From assembly GCA_041489255.1 (NCBI GenBank), contig JBGPQV010000014.1, forward strand, positions 17,304 to 41,303: DNA of 24,000 nucleotides. The letters are read 5' to 3'. Position 1 is the stretch's first letter. Every line of letters begins with the position of its first letter. The notes beneath the pieces are model-generated. The model saw nothing but the letters and a program-made list of their open reading frames with translations, made no database searches and was not told where the DNA came from. This document shows positions 1,573 to 19,129 of the stretch, piece after piece. Made by a program: the position numbers and the translations under genes. Source of the DNA: Thermoplasmata archaeon (lineage in GTDB: Archaea; Thermoplasmatota; Thermoplasmata; RBG-16-68-12; JAFNFQ01).

Positions 1573-1613
1573 CCTACGGCAGTCGGTAATCCTATGGAGA
1601 AGACTGCCGTAGG
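1573..1613 (-). other. Perfect 12-bp hairpin with a 17-nt loop, immediately 3' of the RNase P RNA
   Basis: cctacggcagtc (1573-1584) is the exact reverse complement of gactgccgtagg (1602-1613). In RNA sense the 5' arm CCUACGGCAGUC repeats CCUACGGCGGUC found within the RNase P RNA 3' region (1626-1637). Confidence 0.6.
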
Positions 1614-1614
1614 G

Positions 1615-1977
1615 GGGCCAGGTGACCGCCGTAGGCCCCCTTCTGTTCTAACGGCATTTGACTTAGCGTCCTACCTGGCCTATCGGCCTTTTTGGACTTG
1701 CTCCGATGGGGAGTCGCCGTCTCACCAGTCGGCTCCGATCGCTCGGCTCCTGCACTCCGCCGCCAGCGTCCTCGTCATTACGTGCCGCGATTCATCCTCG
1801 GCGGCGGCTGTGTCGTTTCTGCGCCCTTGCCATCCCTCTCGGGATACCGGCTTGCGCCGGTCCACCAGCGTCCCCGCGGCCTCCGCGAGAGGCGCGCGGT
1901 TCGCTCGCCGGTTTGGAGGGGGGACCTTCCTCAGCAACCACGTTGGTCACCGTCGGCCGTCCACGGTCTCCTGGCGG
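1615..1977 (-). ncRNA. rnpB: RNase P RNA, archaeal type-A-like (ends approximate, about +/-15 nt)
   Basis: The reverse complement carries conserved blocks: GAGGAAGGTCCCCCC (CR-I, 1932..1918), GGCAAGGGCGCAGAAACGACACAG (1831..1808, CR-II/III-like), GGAGCAAGTCCAAAAAGGCCGATAGG (about 1704..1679; compare E. coli M1 GGAGCAAGGCCAAATAGG) and AACAGAAGGGGGCCTAC (CR-V, 1647..1631). P4 can form as GGTCCCCC/GGGGGCC. A terminal P1 can form as GCCAGGAGACC (1975..1965) with GGTCACCTGGC (1627..1617), 10 of 11 pairs. Confidence 0.85.
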
Positions 1978-1997
1978 GACTCCAACAGAGTTCCCGC

Positions 1998-2006
1998 CTA
2001 AAATGC
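1998..2006 (-). promoter_or_regulatory. Candidate TATA box (CATTTTAGG) for rnpB
   Basis: This A/T-rich 9-mer is centred about 26 nt upstream of the predicted RNA 5' end (about 1975-1977) inferred from the P1 pairing. Confidence 0.35.
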
Positions 2007-8830: not shown

Positions 8831-11485
8831 ATGCATCCCTCGCGGAAGAATCGGGGCAGTTCCAAGGTGAATCGTGGGCTAGTACTTCCGATGCTGCTGG
8901 GTTTCGTCCTCATCTTTTCGTACCTCGTGCTCGAGTCACCGCAGGCCAAGGCAGACCCGGGCATAGACTACGTCCAGATCAGAACCGCTCCCGGCGGCGG
9001 GGGCGAGGTCGTCGGGGACATGCTCTACTATGTCGGCGACCAGGACACGTACTGGGCGGCAGGCTACAACGTCTCGGGCGACTTCGTCATGGACGTCGAG
9101 GCACACTGGTACACGAGGACTTCCTTGGTGGGATGGGTGGAACCTTATGAAGGCACGAACACGACCTTCCACGCTGCTGGTGAAGGTCAGACCTACGTCA
9201 GCATGTATGCATCGCTGAACCAGAGCGGCAATAACACCTATTGGCAGAATGATACGGGAATCCTGACGGTGCTGTACCGTGGCGTCGACTACGTCCAGAT
9301 AAGGGACGGGCCCGAGGGCGGCGGGAGCATCGTGGATGTGCGCTCGTACTTCATCGACGACACGGACACTTACTACGCGGCCGGCTACAATCACTCCAGT
9401 GGCTTCATGGGGGACCTCCCTGCGGCATGGGAGAGCGACAACGACACAGTCTGCACGATAACCAGGCAGGAGTACCAAGCGGAATTCAAAGGGGTCGGCC
9501 AGGGCGTCTGCCATGTCTCTGCGACCTACAACGGCACCGTCACGAACACGACCGGCGACCTGACGGTCGATCAGAGGATCGTACTGACCGTCGACGACGA
9601 TCCTGGTGCGGATTACTTCACGATTCACGAGGCGGTGGAGAACGCCAGCGACGGCTACATGATCTTCGTCTATAATGGGACCTACAACGAGCACGTGCTG
9701 GTGGACAAGCGGCTCATCATCGAGGGCGAGTCGATGGAGAGCGTGATCGTGGACGGCGGCGGGAGCGGTATCGTATTCCATGTCACCGCCAAGAGCGTGG
9801 AGATATCCAGGTTCACCGTCAGGAACGCCGACTACGGCTTCTACCTGGATCACTGCAACAATACGCGGTTGACCTACAACAAGATCACCTCGTACACCTA
9901 CGGCATCTACTCCAACAGGACGAAGGACGCGTTCATCGCGTGGAACGTCATAACGGTCGGGCAATATGGCGTGGTCACGGACCATGCGCACAACGACGCG
10001 GTGCGCTACAACACCATCTCTTACAACGACGAGTACGGCGCGAAGGATTACGATTCGGATCTGAAGAACTGCTTCAACTGGAACTACTTCCACCACAACC
10101 ACATCGCCTACTACTACGACCCGGAGGAGCCGGTGGGCACGCTGCTCTTCAACGGCAACCGGATCGAGAACAACGACATCGGGATCAAGGCGTCGCAGGC
10201 CTCCTCGCTCATAGCGACGGACAACACGATTCTGAGCAATGGCGTCGGCATCGACCTAGTTGACTCCTCGCCCTACATTGCTGGCAACCTCCTCAAGTTC
10301 AACACGATCGGCGTCAGGTTCAGCAACTCGGCCGCGACGATCTACAACAACTACATCCAGGGCGGGGACTACGGGATAACGGGCACGGGCACATCGCCGA
10401 CGATCCAGGGGAACACGATTCTTGAGTCTGCGATCCTGGAGGTCTCGATCACCGCGGGGAACGATGTGCGCCTCTTGGACAACGACCTGGGCGGCGGCAT
10501 CGCCCGCCTGGCGGATTCCACTGTCCGCGAGATGTCCCTGGTCCGGACGACCTTGCGGCAGCTCAACACGACCGTCTTCGACTGGAGCCTTGATTCCGAG
10601 TCTCAGATCGACATCCAGTGGTATCTCGGAGTGCGGGTGAAGGATTCGGGCGGCAACGCGGTCCTGGGAGCGCTGGTCAAAGTCTCCGGCAGCGATGGGC
10701 GCGAGGTCGTCAACGGGACTTCGACATCCGGCGGATTGACGGGGCCCTTCGAGCTGACCGAGAAGGTGAGGCGGCTGAGCGGGGACGTGAGCGAGGGCGC
10801 CTACCTGATCGAAGCGTCCGATGGAGACCAAAAGGCCTCGCAGACGGTCCTTATGGACAGCAACAAGCAGCTCGACTTGGCGATCGGTCCGATTCCAGGC
10901 GTGGGTGAGGGCGGCATCCCGTGGATTTTCGTCGGGGCAGTCGGCGTCGCCGGGGCTCTGACGGTTGCGGGACTCTTCTCCATAGAGATCTTCGTCTACT
11001 TCTTCTTCGCCCTCTTTGTCCCGCTGTACACGAAACTCAGGAAGGACCAGGTGCTCGACCATTACAGCCGCGGCAGGGTCTACCAGTATATCGAGATGAA
11101 TCCCGGAGAGCACTTCAACTCGATCAAGCGGGCCCTGGACCTGAACATCGGCACCGCAACGTATCACCTGGAAGTCCTTTCCAGATCCGGGCTCGTGACC
11201 TCCCGCCAGGACGGAATCTACAAGCGGTTCTATCCGACGAATGTCCCGATACCGCCATCGAACGGCGGGGGCATAAGCGAAGTGCAGCAGCGGGTCCTCA
11301 CTGTCATCAAGGACACGCCAGGGATAAGGCAGAAAGAGATCGCCCGCCTGTTCGGGATAAGGCAGTCGACACTGAACTACCAGGTCACCAGGCTGGAGGA
11401 GAAGGGGCTCATCAGCGCAGAGAAGAGAGGACGGAGCGTGCACTACTTCCCCAAGCAGGTTCCGCCGCCACCACCGCAGGCGTAG
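8831..11485 (+). CDS. Membrane-tethered tandem wHTH protein with a large extracellular domain (signal peptide, 2 Ig-like repeats, right-handed beta-helix/PbH1 repeats, CarboxypepD_reg-like domain, TM segment, 2 winged-helix DNA-binding domains)
   Basis: 884 aa. The signal peptide is LVLPMLLGFVLIFSYLVLESPQAKA. Duplicated modules begin DYVQIR..GGG...DTY.AAGYN (aa 42-148 and 151-247). NosD/pectate-lyase-like repeats span aa 255-560 (DGYMIFVYNGTYNEHVLVDKRLIIEGE, NKITSYTYGIYS, NTISYN, NRIENNDIGIKAS and others). The hydrophobic segment IPWIFVGAVGVAGALTVAGLFSIEIFVYFFFALFVPLY covers aa 696-733. The wHTH domains are RVYQYIEMNPGEHFNSIKRALDLNIGTATYHLEVLSRSGLV and RVLTVIKDTPGIRQKEIARLFGIRQSTLNYQVTRLEEKGLI. 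Confidence 0.85.
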   Translation: MHPSRKNRGSSKVNRGLVLPMLLGFVLIFSYLVLESPQAKADPGIDYVQIRTAPGGGGEVVGDMLYYVGDQDTYWAAGYNVSGDFVMDVEAHWYTRTSLVGWVEPYEGTNTTFHAAGEGQTYVSMYASLNQSGNNTYWQNDTGILTVLYRGVDYVQIRDGPEGGGSIVDVRSYFIDDTDTYYAAGYNHSSGFMGDLPAAWESDNDTVCTITRQEYQAEFKGVGQGVCHVSATYNGTVTNTTGDLTVDQRIVLTVDDDPGADYFTIHEAVENASDGYMIFVYNGTYNEHVLVDKRLIIEGESMESVIVDGGGSGIVFHVTAKSVEISRFTVRNADYGFYLDHCNNTRLTYNKITSYTYGIYSNRTKDAFIAWNVITVGQYGVVTDHAHNDAVRYNTISYNDEYGAKDYDSDLKNCFNWNYFHHNHIAYYYDPEEPVGTLLFNGNRIENNDIGIKASQASSLIATDNTILSNGVGIDLVDSSPYIAGNLLKFNTIGVRFSNSAATIYNNYIQGGDYGITGTGTSPTIQGNTILESAILEVSITAGNDVRLLDNDLGGGIARLADSTVREMSLVRTTLRQLNTTVFDWSLDSESQIDIQWYLGVRVKDSGGNAVLGALVKVSGSDGREVVNGTSTSGGLTGPFELTEKVRRLSGDVSEGAYLIEASDGDQKASQTVLMDSNKQLDLAIGPIPGVGEGGIPWIFVGAVGVAGALTVAGLFSIEIFVYFFFALFVPLYTKLRKDQVLDHYSRGRVYQYIEMNPGEHFNSIKRALDLNIGTATYHLEVLSRSGLVTSRQDGIYKRFYPTNVPIPPSNGGGISEVQQRVLTVIKDTPGIRQKEIARLFGIRQSTLNYQVTRLEEKGLISAEKRGRSVHYFPKQVPPPPPQA

Positions 11486-13743: not shown

Positions 13744-14241
13744 TTGGGGTGTCGCTTGGGCAGGACTATCAAGGTATTCTGCACCAAATTGTCCGGCATC
13801 TCCCTCGGCAAGCTCCTGGATGAGCTTCGTGAGTCGGGGTTCGACTGTCGATACGTGGACACCTCCCTCGACTTCGACCTCGATTCGCCCGTCTGGGCGC
13901 GGGCAGAGATCGTCAGCACTGGGAGTCCGCGTTCGATCGTCATCGAGCACTACATCGGCGGGCTTCATGGGACGCTCGTGGAGGAGGAGACGGAGCAACT
14001 GCTCGAGAAGGTCGAATCCGCCGAGGAATCGTGGAACAAGCGAGAGGTCGTGGTCTATCTCCGCATGTCTAGAGAGCTTTTCGCGATCCAGATGGAAGGC
14101 GGGGAGGCAGAGAGGATGAAGGGGCTCCTTGATCGCTGCCTGCAGTTATTCGCGACCATGGGCGAAGGTTTGCTCTATGTCGAGGGCGAGGGCTTCTTCA
14201 GCAAAGGTAAGCTCGTCCTGCCGCTAGCGAAAGACGACTGA
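13744..14241 (+). CDS. Hypothetical cytoplasmic acidic protein
   Basis: 165-aa ORF with GC-rich third codon positions and no TM segment or signal peptide. I recognise no family. The TTG start is uncertain. Confidence 0.5.
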   Translation: MGCRLGRTIKVFCTKLSGISLGKLLDELRESGFDCRYVDTSLDFDLDSPVWARAEIVSTGSPRSIVIEHYIGGLHGTLVEEETEQLLEKVESAEESWNKREVVVYLRMSRELFAIQMEGGEAERMKGLLDRCLQLFATMGEGLLYVEGEGFFSKGKLVLPLAKDD

Positions 14242-15828: not shown

Positions 15829-16545
15829 TCACTGCAAGAGCTCGTAGACTATCCTGTCCGTCTCCTTGCCCTTGCTCCTGCTCTCGGTGATGTGCATCCG
15901 GCCGACCTCTGATGTGTTGCGAAGGTGAGTTCCGCCACAGGGGCAGTAATCGACGTCCTGTATCTTCACGATTCTCAGCCGCCTGATGCCCTTAGGGATG
16001 AGGTCCATGAGCGCCCTGTCGTCGACGCGGTTCTCGACCGCGACGCGGTCTTCCTCGAAGATCGTTACGGGCTTCGCGGCGGTGAACACCTTATTGCACT
16101 CGTCCTCTATCCTCTTCAAGTCCTCCGGGGTGAATGTTGCCGGTTGGAAATCGACGCGCGAATGGTCGGAATGAATCTGGTTGCCAACCGTCCTCGCGCC
16201 GTAGACCTTGAACACGAGGCCGGAGATGACATGCTGGGAGGTGTGCATGCGCATGTGCGCGTACCTCCTGTCCCAGTCGATGACGCCGTGCACCTGCCCT
16301 GATGGCGGGAGCTTGTCCACACAGTGCTTGATGACGCCTTTCTCCTTGGTCACCTTCCAGACCCTCGCCTCCCCGCCATCCCAGCGAAGCAGGCCGGTGT
16401 CCGTCGGCTGGCCTCCCGCCTCCGCGTAGAAAAGGGTCTTGTCGAGGATGATGTGGTCATTTCCTGATTCGATTATGCTGGCATCGAGTTCCCTGAGGTA
16501 GCATGCATCCGCGCTCGGGAAGTAGAGAATCTCGGTGCCGGTCAT
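15829..16545 (-). CDS. alaX: Alanyl-tRNA editing protein AlaX (AlaX-M type)
   Basis: 238 aa with the zinc/editing motifs HMRMHTSQH (HxxxH) and CPCGGTHLRNTSEVG (CxxxH). The N-terminal LFYAEAGGQPTDTG block is typical of the AlaRS editing / threonyl-alanyl SAD fold. Confidence 0.92.
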   Translation of the reverse strand: MTGTEILYFPSADACYLRELDASIIESGNDHIILDKTLFYAEAGGQPTDTGLLRWDGGEARVWKVTKEKGVIKHCVDKLPPSGQVHGVIDWDRRYAHMRMHTSQHVISGLVFKVYGARTVGNQIHSDHSRVDFQPATFTPEDLKRIEDECNKVFTAAKPVTIFEEDRVAVENRVDDRALMDLIPKGIRRLRIVKIQDVDYCPCGGTHLRNTSEVGRMHITESRSKGKETDRIVYELLQ

Positions 16546-16574: not shown

Positions 16575-16661
16575 AGCGCGGGACTAAACCTTTTCACATG
16601 ACGGCACCTCGCACAATCGGAGAGGAATAGTGACCGGATGAAGCGGCCATGGCGGCCAGAA

Positions 16662-16676
16662 GGCCGCGACGCGGCC
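16662..16676. repeat. Perfect 15-nt GC palindrome GGCCGCG-A-CGCGGCC, within three GCGGCC copies
   Basis: Read directly from the sequence. GCGGCC occurs at 16643, 16652 and 16671, and GCCATGGC at 16646-16653. Confidence 0.6.
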
Positions 16677-16682
16677 TCACGT

Positions 16683-16716
16683 CCTCTTGTTATCCCTAAG
16701 TAGATATAACAGGAGG
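16683..16716. other. 11-bp inverted repeat (one G-T pair) with a 12-nt loop, enclosing a TATA-like GATATAAC
   Basis: cctcttgttat (16683-16693) pairs with ataacaggagg (16706-16716). The loop is ccctaagtagat. Confidence 0.55.
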
Positions 16717-16813
16717 GGGCGTGACCCTTGGCGGGGGAGGTCGATGAACGTGGTGGCTGCCTGAGTGCATCTTGGCCTCGGCATCGGGGGGATGGCAGTT
16801 TCTGAATCAACAG

Positions 16814-17119
16814 ATGTCGTTGGCGCGGAACGGCCAGCGCCTGCATTGACCTCAGGACCCGAGGTATCGGTTGAGAGATTGGTGTCATTTCTTCCAGTGC
16901 AGACCCGTCTCTAATCGATTCACACTTGGATGTCGTGGTTCGCGACCCGAATCGACTTCGTCCAGGGCGGCCGGGAAATCGATGCGGCAAGCCGGCACAA
17001 CCGCCAGAGATGTCTGGGTGCGAGGTCGTCGCGCACCGATCATGTCGCGACGCGAGCACACAGGAGATGAGCCCGAACCGAATCCTGCCGGAATGTCGCG
17101 GACACCGCCGATGTCGCGG
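16814..17119. repeat. Dispersed motif ATGTCG[CT]G[GA] (6 copies, 3 strong) carrying the array core in inverted orientation
   Basis: Strong copies are ATGTCGCGA at 17042, ATGTCGCGG at 17093 and ATGTCGCGG at 17111. Weaker copies are ATGTCGTTGG at 16814, ATGTCGTGG at 16920 and ATGTCTGGG at 17010. TCGCGG is the reverse complement of the CCGCGA core of the 21-bp array. Confidence 0.5.
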
Positions 17120-17127
17120 CGGGCGTC

Positions 17128-17459
17128 GTCTCGACCGCGAAGGACAGTTTCTCAACCGAGAAGAATAATCTCTCGATGCGCATGGATTTCATCTCTGTCG
17201 GGCTGAGTCCGCGCTCAACCGGGAAGAAATGTTTCTACAGAGAAAGATTCCTTCCGCACCGCGAAGAGATCCTTCTCAACCGCGAAACATTTCTTCCGGA
17301 CAGAGAAAGGCACCGTGCGCGTTGAACCATGACCAGGGAACCTTCGAGAAGACGTCTTTCTCGACAGCGAAAGCCGATTCTGCCTTCCCATGCTCCTTCT
17401 CGACCGCGAAAGAGTCCTTCTCAACCGCGAAGGAGTCCGTCCAGACCGCGAAGGACTCC
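17128..17459. repeat. Degenerate 21-bp direct tandem array, about 16 unit lengths; consensus TTCTC[AG]ACCGCGAA[AG]GAGTCC
   Basis: The best units start at 17128, 17149, 17252, 17273, 17358, 17397, 17418 and 17439. The last three are ttctcgaccgcgaaagagtcc, ttctcaaccgcgaaggagtcc and gtccagaccgcgaaggactcc. Partial units start at 17212, 17233, 17294 and 17336. Degenerate units start at 17170, 17191, 17315 and 17379. Unit lengths are 21 nt except for 19, 22 and 18. Confidence 0.8.
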
Positions 17460-17712
17460 GTGCGCACGCCCCACTCCCTAGAAGGTCCCTGGGACATCCA
17501 CGCAATCGGCTGTCTCTCGGTGCCCTTCCATCGGAGGAATCTTGAAACGCTTCCCTCAGCAGGCACGTCACAGTGATCAGCCTTTGTATCTCGTCGAATC
17601 GCAGAATGCATTGCGAATGTGAGGATGTCCGCATTCGGGATTCCCTGGAGGTGAAACCATTAATATTCAAGAACTATGATGGTCTCGACAATCTTACGGA
17701 GGATTACCTCGA

Positions 17713-17970
17713 GTGAGGGGAAAGGAGGATACGCCCGATGCGACTGCTTCCGCACTGGATAGATGGAGAGCATGGGCGGTGGTGTTTCTCATCGGAGGTT
17801 TGTCGGCAACTATCGGGTTCTTCATGTGGCTGGTCCTCTGGATTCAAACGCCGCTATCACCCAGCTTCGAGAGGAGCCGTGTCCCAATTGGAGCATTGCT
17901 GATAAGCGGACTTGTCTTTGGAGTATACTTGGTTGCGCGGTCTCTCCAGTGGTACAGGAGGGCAGAGTAG
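17713..17970 (+). CDS. Hypothetical small membrane protein (2 TM helices)
   Basis: 85 aa with TM stretches WAVVFLIGGLSATIGFFMWLVLWI and IGALLISGLVFGVYLVA. GGAGGA lies 11 nt upstream of GTG 17713, and an ATTAATATTC box sits at 17659-17668. Confidence 0.5.
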   Translation: MRGKEDTPDATASALDRWRAWAVVFLIGGLSATIGFFMWLVLWIQTPLSPSFERSRVPIGALLISGLVFGVYLVARSLQWYRRAE

Positions 17971-17983
17971 CGCGCGCAATCGC

Positions 17984-19129
17984 CTAGCTTCCCCTCAATA
18001 GGCTCCTCGCAATGACCAGCCTCTGTATCTCGCTCGTCCCCTCGTACAGCTCCGTGATCTTCTGATCCCTGAAGTACCTCTCGACCGGGTAGTCCTTGAC
18101 GAAACCATACCCGCCATGGATCTGAAGCGCCTGGTCGACTATGCGCTTGCACGCCTCCGAGGCGAACAGCTTCGCCATGCTCGACTCCGTCGTGTGCTTC
18201 ATCCCCTGGTCCTTCATCCAGCACGCCCGATGAGTGAGCAGCCTGGCTGCATCTATCTGGGTGGCCATGTCGGCCAGCTTGAATTGGATGGCTTGCAAGT
18301 TGCTTATTGGCCCGCCAAAGGCCTTCCTTTCCTTGGAGTACTTGATGGCGGCCTCCATGGCGGCCTGAGCGATGCCAAGCGCCTGCGACGCAATCCCGAT
18401 CCTACCCACGTCCAGCGTCGCCATCGCGATCTTGAAACCCTCGCCCCTCGTGCCCAGCAGGTGGTCCTCAGGGATCCTGCAGTCATCGAAGGCGATGAGC
18501 TCGGTGTCTGAGGCCCTGATGCCCAGCTTGTTCTCCTTCTTGACGCGCTGGTACCCTGGAGATGAATCCGGGACGATGAAGGCGGAAATCCCCTTCGGCC
18601 CCGTGCCCGGATCAGTCCGCGCGTAGGTGATGAGGAGCTTCGCCATGTAGCCGTTCGTCACGAAGATCTTGGAGCCGTTGAGGTGCCATTCCCCGCCCTT
18701 GAGCTCGGCGGTCGATGTGAGGGCGGCGGCATCGGAGCCCGCCCCGGGCTCGGTCAATGCGTACGCCCCGACCCACTCCCCGCTCGCCACCTTCGTTAGG
18801 TAGTCCTTCTTCTGTTTCTCGGTCCCCCATTTGTACAGGGGCTCGCAGGCCAGGCCGTTGTTCACACCGAGCATGACGCCCGCGGAGGCGTCTATTCGGG
18901 AAATCTCCTCGATCGCGATCGAGTAGGAGATGTAGTCGAGGCCCGCCCCGCCAAGCTCCGTCGGGATTGCCATGCCCGTGAGGCCCATCTCCGCCATCTT
19001 CTTCATCCAATGCACCGGCGTCTCCTGGACCTCGTCGTAGTGCGCGCTCTCAGGCGCAAGTTCCTTCTCGGCAAACTCCCTGACAGACTTCTTGATCATC
19101 TGATGGGTCTCGTTGTATTCGAACTCCAT
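17984..19129 (-). CDS. Acyl-CoA dehydrogenase (short/medium-chain, butyryl-CoA dehydrogenase-like)
   Basis: 381 aa with full-length ACAD architecture. Matching blocks include ALTEPGAGSDAA, GSKIFVTNG, ALGIAQAAMEAAIKYSKERKAFG, QAIQFKLADMAT and the C-terminal IYEGTSEIQRLVIAR-like YEGTSEIQRLVIARSLL. Confidence 0.95.
   Translation of the reverse strand: MEFEYNETHQMIKKSVREFAEKELAPESAHYDEVQETPVHWMKKMAEMGLTGMAIPTELGGAGLDYISYSIAIEEISRIDASAGVMLGVNNGLACEPLYKWGTEKQKKDYLTKVASGEWVGAYALTEPGAGSDAAALTSTAELKGGEWHLNGSKIFVTNGYMAKLLITYARTDPGTGPKGISAFIVPDSSPGYQRVKKENKLGIRASDTELIAFDDCRIPEDHLLGTRGEGFKIAMATLDVGRIGIASQALGIAQAAMEAAIKYSKERKAFGGPISNLQAIQFKLADMATQIDAARLLTHRACWMKDQGMKHTTESSMAKLFASEACKRIVDQALQIHGGYGFVKDYPVERYFRDQKITELYEGTSEIQRLVIARSLLRGS

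Follow-up and report, generated by a model that had tools for sequence, protein, structure and literature searches.

A copy-number-variable, non-coding 21-bp tandem array in a swappable accessory slot of a Thermoplasmata archaeon

Direct repeats with internal symmetry are familiar from plasmid maintenance loci: the centromere sopC of plasmid F consists of 12 repeats of 43 bp, each with a dyad, and parC of plasmid R1 carries 11-bp iterons. Archaeal replication origins may also hold repeats (origin recognition box [ORB] and mini-ORB elements). These origins are described as AT-rich and adjacent to orc1/cdc6 (PMC3177234). In natural populations, moreover, non-coding deletions are known to concentrate at intergenic tandem repeats (PMC9426551). 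This work describes a tandem array of 21-bp units from a Thermoplasmata archaeon, located between an alaX-like gene and an acyl-CoA dehydrogenase (ACAD) gene on contig JBGPQV010000014.1. The stretch of this contig that was analyzed, 24,000 nt in length, is referred to here as the window, and coordinates are window positions unless a related contig (L followed by a number) is named. The array is non-coding, accessory, variable in copy number, and restricted to one lineage, and we regard it with high confidence as a minisatellite in accessory DNA.

The array spans positions 17125 to 17466 and comprises 16 slots of 21 bp, 11 of which hold recognizable units and 5 of which are degenerate (Table 1). 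A relaxed core, AC[CA]G[ACG]GAA, occurs 11 times (17134, 17155, 17218, 17237, 17258, 17279, 17300, 17364, 17403, 17424, and 17445), with successive spacings of 21, 63, 19, 21, 21, 21, 64, 39, 21, and 21 bp. Tandem Repeats Finder (TRF) reported three sub-arrays of period 21 (17129-17174, 17242-17309, and 17394-17459), and repeat detection returned 8 in-register copies. Compared to shuffled sequence, a three-unit pattern gave 3 matches where 0.00 were expected, and a 20-mer consensus allowing up to 3 mismatches gave 5 where 0.02 were expected. The unit consensus, TCCTTCTCGACCGCGAAGGAC, is a 20-bp near-palindrome that is self-complementary at 8 of 10 pairs (P ~0.009 after allowing for 21 registers). 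All strong matrix matches fall on the + strand inside 17125-17456, giving the array a single orientation. Units abut without spacers, and the unique, similar-length spacers that split the repeats of a CRISPR array were not found between them. At a higher level of organization, two 72-bp copies (17249-17320 and 17394-17465) share 75% identity and lie 145 bp apart.

A first-pass annotation, made from the letters of the window alone, had described about 16 units, built on a dyad and repeated every two helical turns, with unit B (17149) reading TTCTC-AACC-GAGAA. On these points, TRF, repeat detection, the 11 cores, the pattern enrichment, and the symmetry of the consensus all agree with it: the array is real, unit B reads as given, and the 21-bp period corresponds to two turns of the helix. 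Two further details need correction. The stricter core TC[AG]ACCG[CA]GAA is matched exactly by 5 units rather than the 8 originally counted. Moreover, the sites do not all occupy one face of the duplex; phase is kept within sub-arrays only, because shifts of -2, +1, and -3 bp turn the blocks that follow by ~70 to 140 degrees. An assembly artefact was ruled out, as the intergenic region is 100% identical in three contigs that come from separate samples and were assembled independently (two from Logan, one from JGI) and the unit spacing is retained in the assemblies of several relatives.

The array does not encode a protein. Its consensus unit is free of stop codons in all six frames, and long open reading frames (ORFs) across it are therefore to be expected. 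Such ORFs are indeed present in relatives, with 188 aa in the lineage of L084 and L085 (P0023) and 186 aa in L282, and the window lacks one owing to a TAA at 17166. The first-pass annotation had named an intact spanning ORF in relatives as an observation that would overturn its non-coding reading. Formally, that observation has now been made; it does not rescue a coding interpretation, because the ORFs lie in different frames, have no homologues, and arise from a stop-free unit. In addition, they are rich in Arg and traverse the units in three phases, and the ORF of L282 begins with TTG. Neither Pfam nor NCBIfam contained a family matching any ORF over the array region. The minus-strand 111-aa ORF, searched against 5.8 billion clustered proteins, retrieved nothing but two ORFs called at this locus in relatives. 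When the plus-strand 115-aa ORF was searched exhaustively with HMMER against 1.84 billion representatives, the matches were one ORF called at this locus and a repeat protein of no relevance. Between the window and L085, substitutions are distributed over the codon phases of the array in a ratio of 12:12:17 (P = 0.54); the corresponding ratio for ACAD is 3:0:41. In short, the locus is a non-coding DNA repeat, as the annotation had concluded, and neither a frameshifted gene nor a misassembly.

These data bear directly on the proposal that the array is a decayed or frameshifted gene for a heptad-repeat protein (SFAVEKD on the minus strand, SFSTAKE on the plus strand), an explanation to which we assign almost no weight. 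The features that had been noted as breaking any such frame were borne out, namely units of 19, 22, and 18 nt and stop codons at 17276 and 17215. In the proposal's favor, unit positions 9, 12, 18, and 21 are the most variable and are third positions in both heptad frames, and 13 of the 25 lineage substitutions inside good units fall on them (P = 0.04); the spanning ORFs of L282 and of L084/L085 can be counted on the same side. The tendency of units to differ at every third base, also remarked on previously, is thus present, although weak (mean information per phase of 1.31, 1.23, and 0.98 bits), and its reading as the trace of a former coding repeat has marginal statistical support only. The same variable positions are equally expected from binding-site degeneracy or from conversion, and the 145-bp deletion described below is not divisible by 3. 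Taken with the mixed frames and phases of the ORFs, the stop-free unit, the lack of a homologous repeat protein in both large searches, and the even fixed-frame substitutions, this largely refutes a heptad-repeat gene or pseudogene: a single reading phase, homologues, and a third-position bias were all absent.

The version of the array seen in the window, termed W-type, was found in four sister lineages: that of the window itself (identical to L001-L003), L004, the group of L084, L085, L086, L288, L327, and L385, and the pair L282 and L395. In L282/L395, an exact 145-bp deletion (window 17258-17402) removes about 6 to 7 units; the copy-number variation that the first-pass annotation had proposed to test for does occur at this locus. 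The length of the deletion equals the spacing of the two 72-bp repeats, which points to unequal crossing-over, with these repeats as its likely substrate. Between L085 and the window, the array differs at 37 of 321 positions (11.5%), compared to 3 of 319 (0.9%) in the left arm and 7 of 246 (2.8%) in the right arm. The value for the array is indistinguishable from that for ACAD third positions (10.7%, P = 0.81), i.e., it diverges at the neutral rate. One patch in L085, in which 5 changes within 7 bp give unit U2 a head resembling that of U16, reads as a gene conversion event. Within the array, L085 substitutions affect the cores less often than the spacers (2/88 versus 35/233, P = 0.0007).

In each of the three comparisons made, divergence of the flanking arms is far below that of ACAD third positions (P values from 1e-4 to 1e-12). 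Purifying selection on the arms, which at first looked strong, was set aside as unproven. The stretch at 16687-16826 is 18% diverged in L004 and nearly identical in L085, and the divergence of the neighboring 85-aa ORF (ORF85) is 7% in L004 and 0.4% in L084. Because these differences between lineages indicate a recombination mosaic, the similarity of the arms was not taken as a sign of constraint.

Conservation at this locus, which the first-pass annotation had suggested looking for, extends no further than the W-type lineages. The array is absent from L410, L411, L412, and L281, despite 92 to 94% nucleotide identity in the flanking genes of two of these (92.9 to 94% for L410; 92.6% for ACAD of L411). 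In L281, L410, and L412, window positions 16753-17548 are replaced by a spacer of ~310 bp (type A), which contains a tandem repeat of 4 × 11 bp with a period of one helical turn. Alignment of the window block to this spacer was only marginally better than alignment of shuffled sequences. In L411, the slot is occupied by an unrelated insert of 1.5 kb with a 178-aa ORF and a 21-bp array of its own (L-type), which has ~9 to 11 units and a higher-order structure of 42 and 84 bp. This L-type array and its arms recur at a different locus, L404, at 79% identity over 729 bp, and the two copies differ by 21-bp indels inside the array. The cargo differs as well: a pair of genes for an HTH_3 protein and an AbiEii-like nucleotidyltransferase in L404, and the 178-aa ORF in L411. 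The W-type and L-type arrays have in common a 21-bp period, about 10 copies, an arm-array-arm layout, occupancy of the slot, orientation relative to the module described below, and short strings (CTTCTCG, GCGAA, and GTGCGCAC); the window array also includes units of the TGCGCA type. However, neither arrays nor arms align significantly, and the best ungapped cyclic match, judged by eye, is ~10 of 21 positions. Homology of the two array types is therefore not demonstrable.

The other boundary of the slot is formed by a dispersed module of ~0.5 kb. This module consists of an 18-bp palindrome, TATACCTA-nn-TAGGTATA, that abuts the ATG of an 81-aa gene, followed by two or three 74-bp repeats, each of which again carries the palindrome. 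It is dispersed over at least three genomic loci, and the 81-aa gene forms 18 clusters at 70 to 97% identity. The confidently predicted structure of its product comprises three beta strands and a 38-residue helix (predicted local distance difference test score, pLDDT, of 88), and this model gave no significant structural match. In the window, the module survives as a remnant, and in L004 the 81-aa gene is split by an insertion of ~970 bp (L004 3621-4592) whose ORFs yielded no Pfam domain. In both L411 and L404, the array block stands upstream of the module in the same order and orientation. What had appeared to be a plain alaX/ACAD junction is thus an accessory slot beside a dispersed module, with an extra 85-aa ORF before ACAD.

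Facing the slot, the module presents a short sequence, GGAGGTCGATGAATGTGG (translated as "MNV..."; window 16736-16765, with equivalents in L410, L412, L281, L411, L404, and L406), that reads into the variable segment. The ORF behind this start differs in every allele, ranging from 5 to 68 aa, and has 6 aa in the window. From its sequence, the region looks like a constant promoter, ribosome binding site, and start codon joined to a swappable sequence.

Table 1. Locations of the array, its slot, and associated features
Feature	Location	Strand	Details
Sub-array 1, units U1-U2	17125-17166	+	Cores 17134 and 17155; U2 with a perfect TTCTC-AACC-GAGAA dyad
Two degenerate slots	17167-17208	+	First with ATGCGCAT palindrome (17175-17182), TGCGCA-type unit
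Sub-array 2, units U5-U9	17209-17311	+	Cores 17218, 17237, 17258, 17279, and 17300; U5-to-U6 spacing of 19 bp
Two degenerate slots	17312-17354	+	GTGCGCGT at 17314; TTCGAGAA at 17342
Unit U12, then an 18-nt degenerate slot	17355-17393	+	Core 17364
Sub-array 3, units U14-U16	17394-17466	+	Best preserved (TRF, 84% matches); terminal GTGCGCAC
First copy of 72-bp higher-order repeat	17249-17320	+	Three units plus GTGCGC; repeat detection
W-type variable segment	16753-17548	.	Left arm, array, and right arm, ~0.8 kb; comparison with relatives
Left arm	16827-17124	+	Non-coding, no RNA-fold signal; nearly identical in the four W-type lineages
Duplicate of ACAD 3'-terminal coding sequence	17549-17593	+	~45 bp, ~80% identity; source copy 17987-18032
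Module remnant	16647-16757	-	One 74-bp-type repeat, palindrome (~16689-16712), conserved upstream region; 81-aa gene deleted
Module copies	window 16647-16757 (remnant); L085 2500-3220; L084 2486-3052; L404 4929-5398; L406 4936-5422		
Type A 4 × 11-bp tandem repeat	L281 1148-1192; L410 234-278; L412 4632-4676		Unit TGTTCCAGT; period of one helical turn
L-type 21-bp array	L411 2699-2930; L404 2847-3076		Unit ~GCTTCTCGGCGAATGCGCACA in window orientation, ~TGTGCGCATTCGCCGAGAAGC as listed
alaX-like gene (tRNA_SAD / tRNA-synt_2c)	15829-16545	-	Flanking core gene
ORF85, hypothetical 85-aa ORF	17713-17970	+	Two hydrophobic stretches; between array and ACAD
ACAD	17984-19129	-	Flanking core gene

Among described systems, the locus resembles intergenic minisatellites and variable-number tandem repeats (VNTRs) in having imperfect, head-to-tail 21-bp units, in lying in non-coding sequence, in the 145-bp indel that makes copy number polymorphic among close genomes, and in its higher-order structure and concerted evolution. 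Unlike in those systems, the unit is nearly palindromic over 20 bp and recurs every two helical turns, the array sits in a swappable segment tied to a small-gene module, and no phase-variable gene adjoins it.

The best explanation as a whole, which we hold only tentatively and at somewhat less than even confidence, is an accessory minisatellite with iteron-like candidate binding units. According to this explanation, the minisatellite is the repeat block of an accessory segment of ~0.8 kb (16753-17548) in a swappable slot, bounded by the ACAD 3' end on one side and by the dispersed module on the other. The array would grow, shrink, and homogenize through unequal crossing-over between the 72-bp repeats and gene conversion between units. 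Its units would be bound by a dimeric DNA-binding protein supplied in trans, so that the array might act as an iteron- or centromere-like landing pad of an accessory element rather than as an operator of alaX or ACAD. Binding is suggested because the unit is near-palindromic, the orientation is single, and repeats of 11, 21, and 21 bp occupy the alternative segments. Nevertheless, that the units are, or once were, binding sites for a dimeric protein, and hence a candidate landing pad, is by itself rather unlikely in our estimation, and is much less secure than the assignment of the array as a minisatellite.

Several observations weigh against a binding function. The lower substitution rate in cores is also expected from conversion alone, since cores are identical among donor units, and selection need not be invoked. 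Units do not preserve the outer arms of the dyad, and the L084/L085 lineage no longer has the perfect dyad of U2. L282 has lost two cores to point changes and six unit slots to its deletion. A recombination mosaic would explain the near-identity of the arms as well as selection would. Finally, no rep, par, or regulator gene accompanies the array consistently, and in L406 the module is found with no array at all.

A purely neutral minisatellite is almost as likely as the tentative explanation above. Here, a palindromic seed would have been amplified by slippage or unequal recombination in a dispensable spacer and would now be drifting and decaying with neither protein nor RNA function. We consider this a possible account, although it too falls short of even confidence. 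It agrees with the variation in copy number and sequence among sister lineages and with the absence of the array from L410, L411, L412, and L281. It also agrees with the degeneracy of 5 of 16 slots, the neutral divergence of the array in L085, the explanation of the core-to-spacer contrast by conversion, and the known behavior of intergenic tandem repeats as deletion hot spots. It accounts less readily for a near-palindromic unit that is unlikely to arise by chance, for the finding that all three alternative segments of the slot contain tandem repeats whose period spans one or two helical turns, and for the retention of the arm-array-arm layout by the L-type array at two loci.

With respect to plasmid iterons and centromeres, the array shares several directly repeated sites of 17 to 22 bp in one orientation, internal dyads, whole-helical-turn spacing, and a setting in accessory DNA. 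In contrast to such loci, no rep-like domain was found in the scanned ORFs of the window or in the flanks of relatives, and no gene for a partition NTPase (parA or parM) or a centromere-binding protein was found in the window or at related loci. In addition, there is no A+T-rich unwinding region beside the array, where GC content is 0.53 to 0.59 (16.5 to 18.0 kb), and helical phase drifts between sub-arrays. Additional good matches to the unit were likewise absent from the rest of the window and from the flanks of relatives; the best was a site of score 16 inside a gene (14076-14096). The window, L411, and L404 contain no ToxN/AbiQ-type toxin gene beside the array, of the kind that accompanies the repeats of a type III toxin-antitoxin system.

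We also consider it very improbable that the array is a set of iterons or part of a replication origin, whether oriC of the chromosome or that of an integrated plasmid-like element. The comparison with ORB and mini-ORB elements is prompted by the length of this archaeal intergenic region and by its richness in repeats, with several motif families (the 21-bp units and the six GATGTCG copies), and elsewhere in the window there are a Toprim/DnaG-like gene, a weak, below-threshold Gins51 match, and a Topo VI A-like gene. However, no orc1/cdc6 gene was found in the 24-kb window or in the flanks of relatives, the region is not AT-rich as archaeal origins are, and the units are in tandem rather than flanking an unwinding element. 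Furthermore, an essential origin would not be missing from relatives whose flanking genes are 92 to 94% identical at the nucleotide level.

A cooperative repressor or operator array for alaX or ORF85 finds little in its favor either. No site lies at or near a TATA box, B recognition element, or transcription start site. The array ends ~200 bp from the putative AT-rich promoter of ORF85 (~17657) and starts >580 bp from the alaX start, and it is for this reason poorly placed for an archaeal operator. A role of the array specific to alaX or ACAD is unlikely.

We also considered whether the array is part of a transcript, either a non-coding RNA or a long leader, that starts at the bidirectional palindrome and TATA sequence of the module and runs rightwards, with the array's hairpins serving as protein-binding or sponge motifs. 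Such a transcript would be in keeping with the Shine-Dalgarno-like motif and ATG of GGAGGTCGATGAATGTGG, which, as read from the sequences, are conserved and face the variable segment in every copy of the module, and with the high similarity of the arms among lineages. The array also folds far better than shuffled sequence (z = -5.5 on the + strand and -3.2 on the - strand); this strong fold is an automatic result of the repeated dyads, and for the arms, folding was no stronger than in shuffled sequence (z = -0.5 and +0.3). The region gave no Rfam match at either gathering or permissive E-value thresholds, and no oligo-T terminator was seen in the sequence. A perfect 14-bp stem (17222-17235/17284-17297) has two mismatches in L085 and is deleted in L282, and a second stem (17492-17508/17614-17630) shows uncompensated changes between lineages. 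Conserved RNA hairpins are thus ruled out by uncompensated changes in L085, L004, and L282, and we regard an RNA function of this kind as improbable.

Regarding the surrounding locus, the divergent starts of alaX and ORF85 enclose a region of 1.17 kb that holds the array. ORF85 has a GTG start with a Shine-Dalgarno-like GGAGGA motif upstream. The duplicate of the ACAD 3' end listed in Table 1 marks the boundary between the variable slot, on its left, and the ORF85 segment, on its right. Because this duplicate flanks the segment and ORF85 is absent from L410, L411, and L412, the ORF85 segment appears to have been inserted, as a cassette, at the 3' end of ACAD. Relatives of the alaX-like gene were found only in Thermoplasmata and in metagenome-assembled genomes of the Methanomassiliicoccales type. 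On the + strand, six motifs of the type GATGTCG(Y)GG occur with irregular spacing (16814, 16930, 17010, 17042, 17093, and 17111); ATGTC[GT] has 14 matches in the remaining 23.7 kb of the window.

Farther away, the window contains an archaeal RNase P RNA (RF00373, 122.8 bits) on the - strand at 1620-1972; a listed ORF at 1594-2001 (+) overlaps it and is probably spurious. An 884-aa protein (8831-11485, + strand) combines NosD/beta-helix repeats with C-terminal winged-helix domains of the HVO_0163 and MarR types, and no link between this protein and the array was found.

Outside the related loci, pattern scans of viral contigs returned only unrelated tandem repeats or chance matches; as no W-type array was among them, a viral or plasmid origin was not retained. 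A metagenome pattern scan gave, among the 120 matches listed, only orthologous loci and unrelated arrays. Two bacterial contigs, L361 (9421-9700) and L304 (99-300, reverse strand), carry 8 to 13 copies of an intergenic 21-bp repeat, GTGAAAATCACACTCCCGACC. These arrays are unrelated to that of the window and were picked up through the shared 11-mer used in the search; the array of L361 adjoins ORFs that, from their sequences, were taken for hemA and hemC. A search of the literature found no description of an element such as the one analyzed here.

A broader and more speculative possibility, which we consider unlikely, is that the array is one of at least three interchangeable, helically phased repeat ends of an undescribed family of composite accessory elements in this Thermoplasmata lineage. 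The repeat ends of such an element would be the 4 × 11-bp repeat of TGTTCCAGT, the W-type array, and the L-type array. Its other end would be formed by the 18-bp palindrome, the 81-aa gene with its predicted three beta strands and long helix, and the two or three 74-bp repeats. Variable cargo, for example, the pair of HTH_3 and AbiEii-like nucleotidyltransferase genes, would lie between the ends. The arrays might then serve as allele-specific iteron- or centromere-like sites, or as recombination sites, that maintain or move the element.

The locus illustrates that a repeat may look striking, with its dyad units and helical spacing, and still be an ordinary minisatellite that evolves rapidly in dispensable DNA, and that a stop-free repeat unit gives rise to long, spurious ORFs that are annotated by gene callers. 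Should the composite-element interpretation prove true, the array would belong to a new small accessory element of uncultured Thermoplasmata with swappable repeat ends and an unassigned small protein, and it would offer an entry point to the exchange and maintenance of accessory DNA in these archaea.

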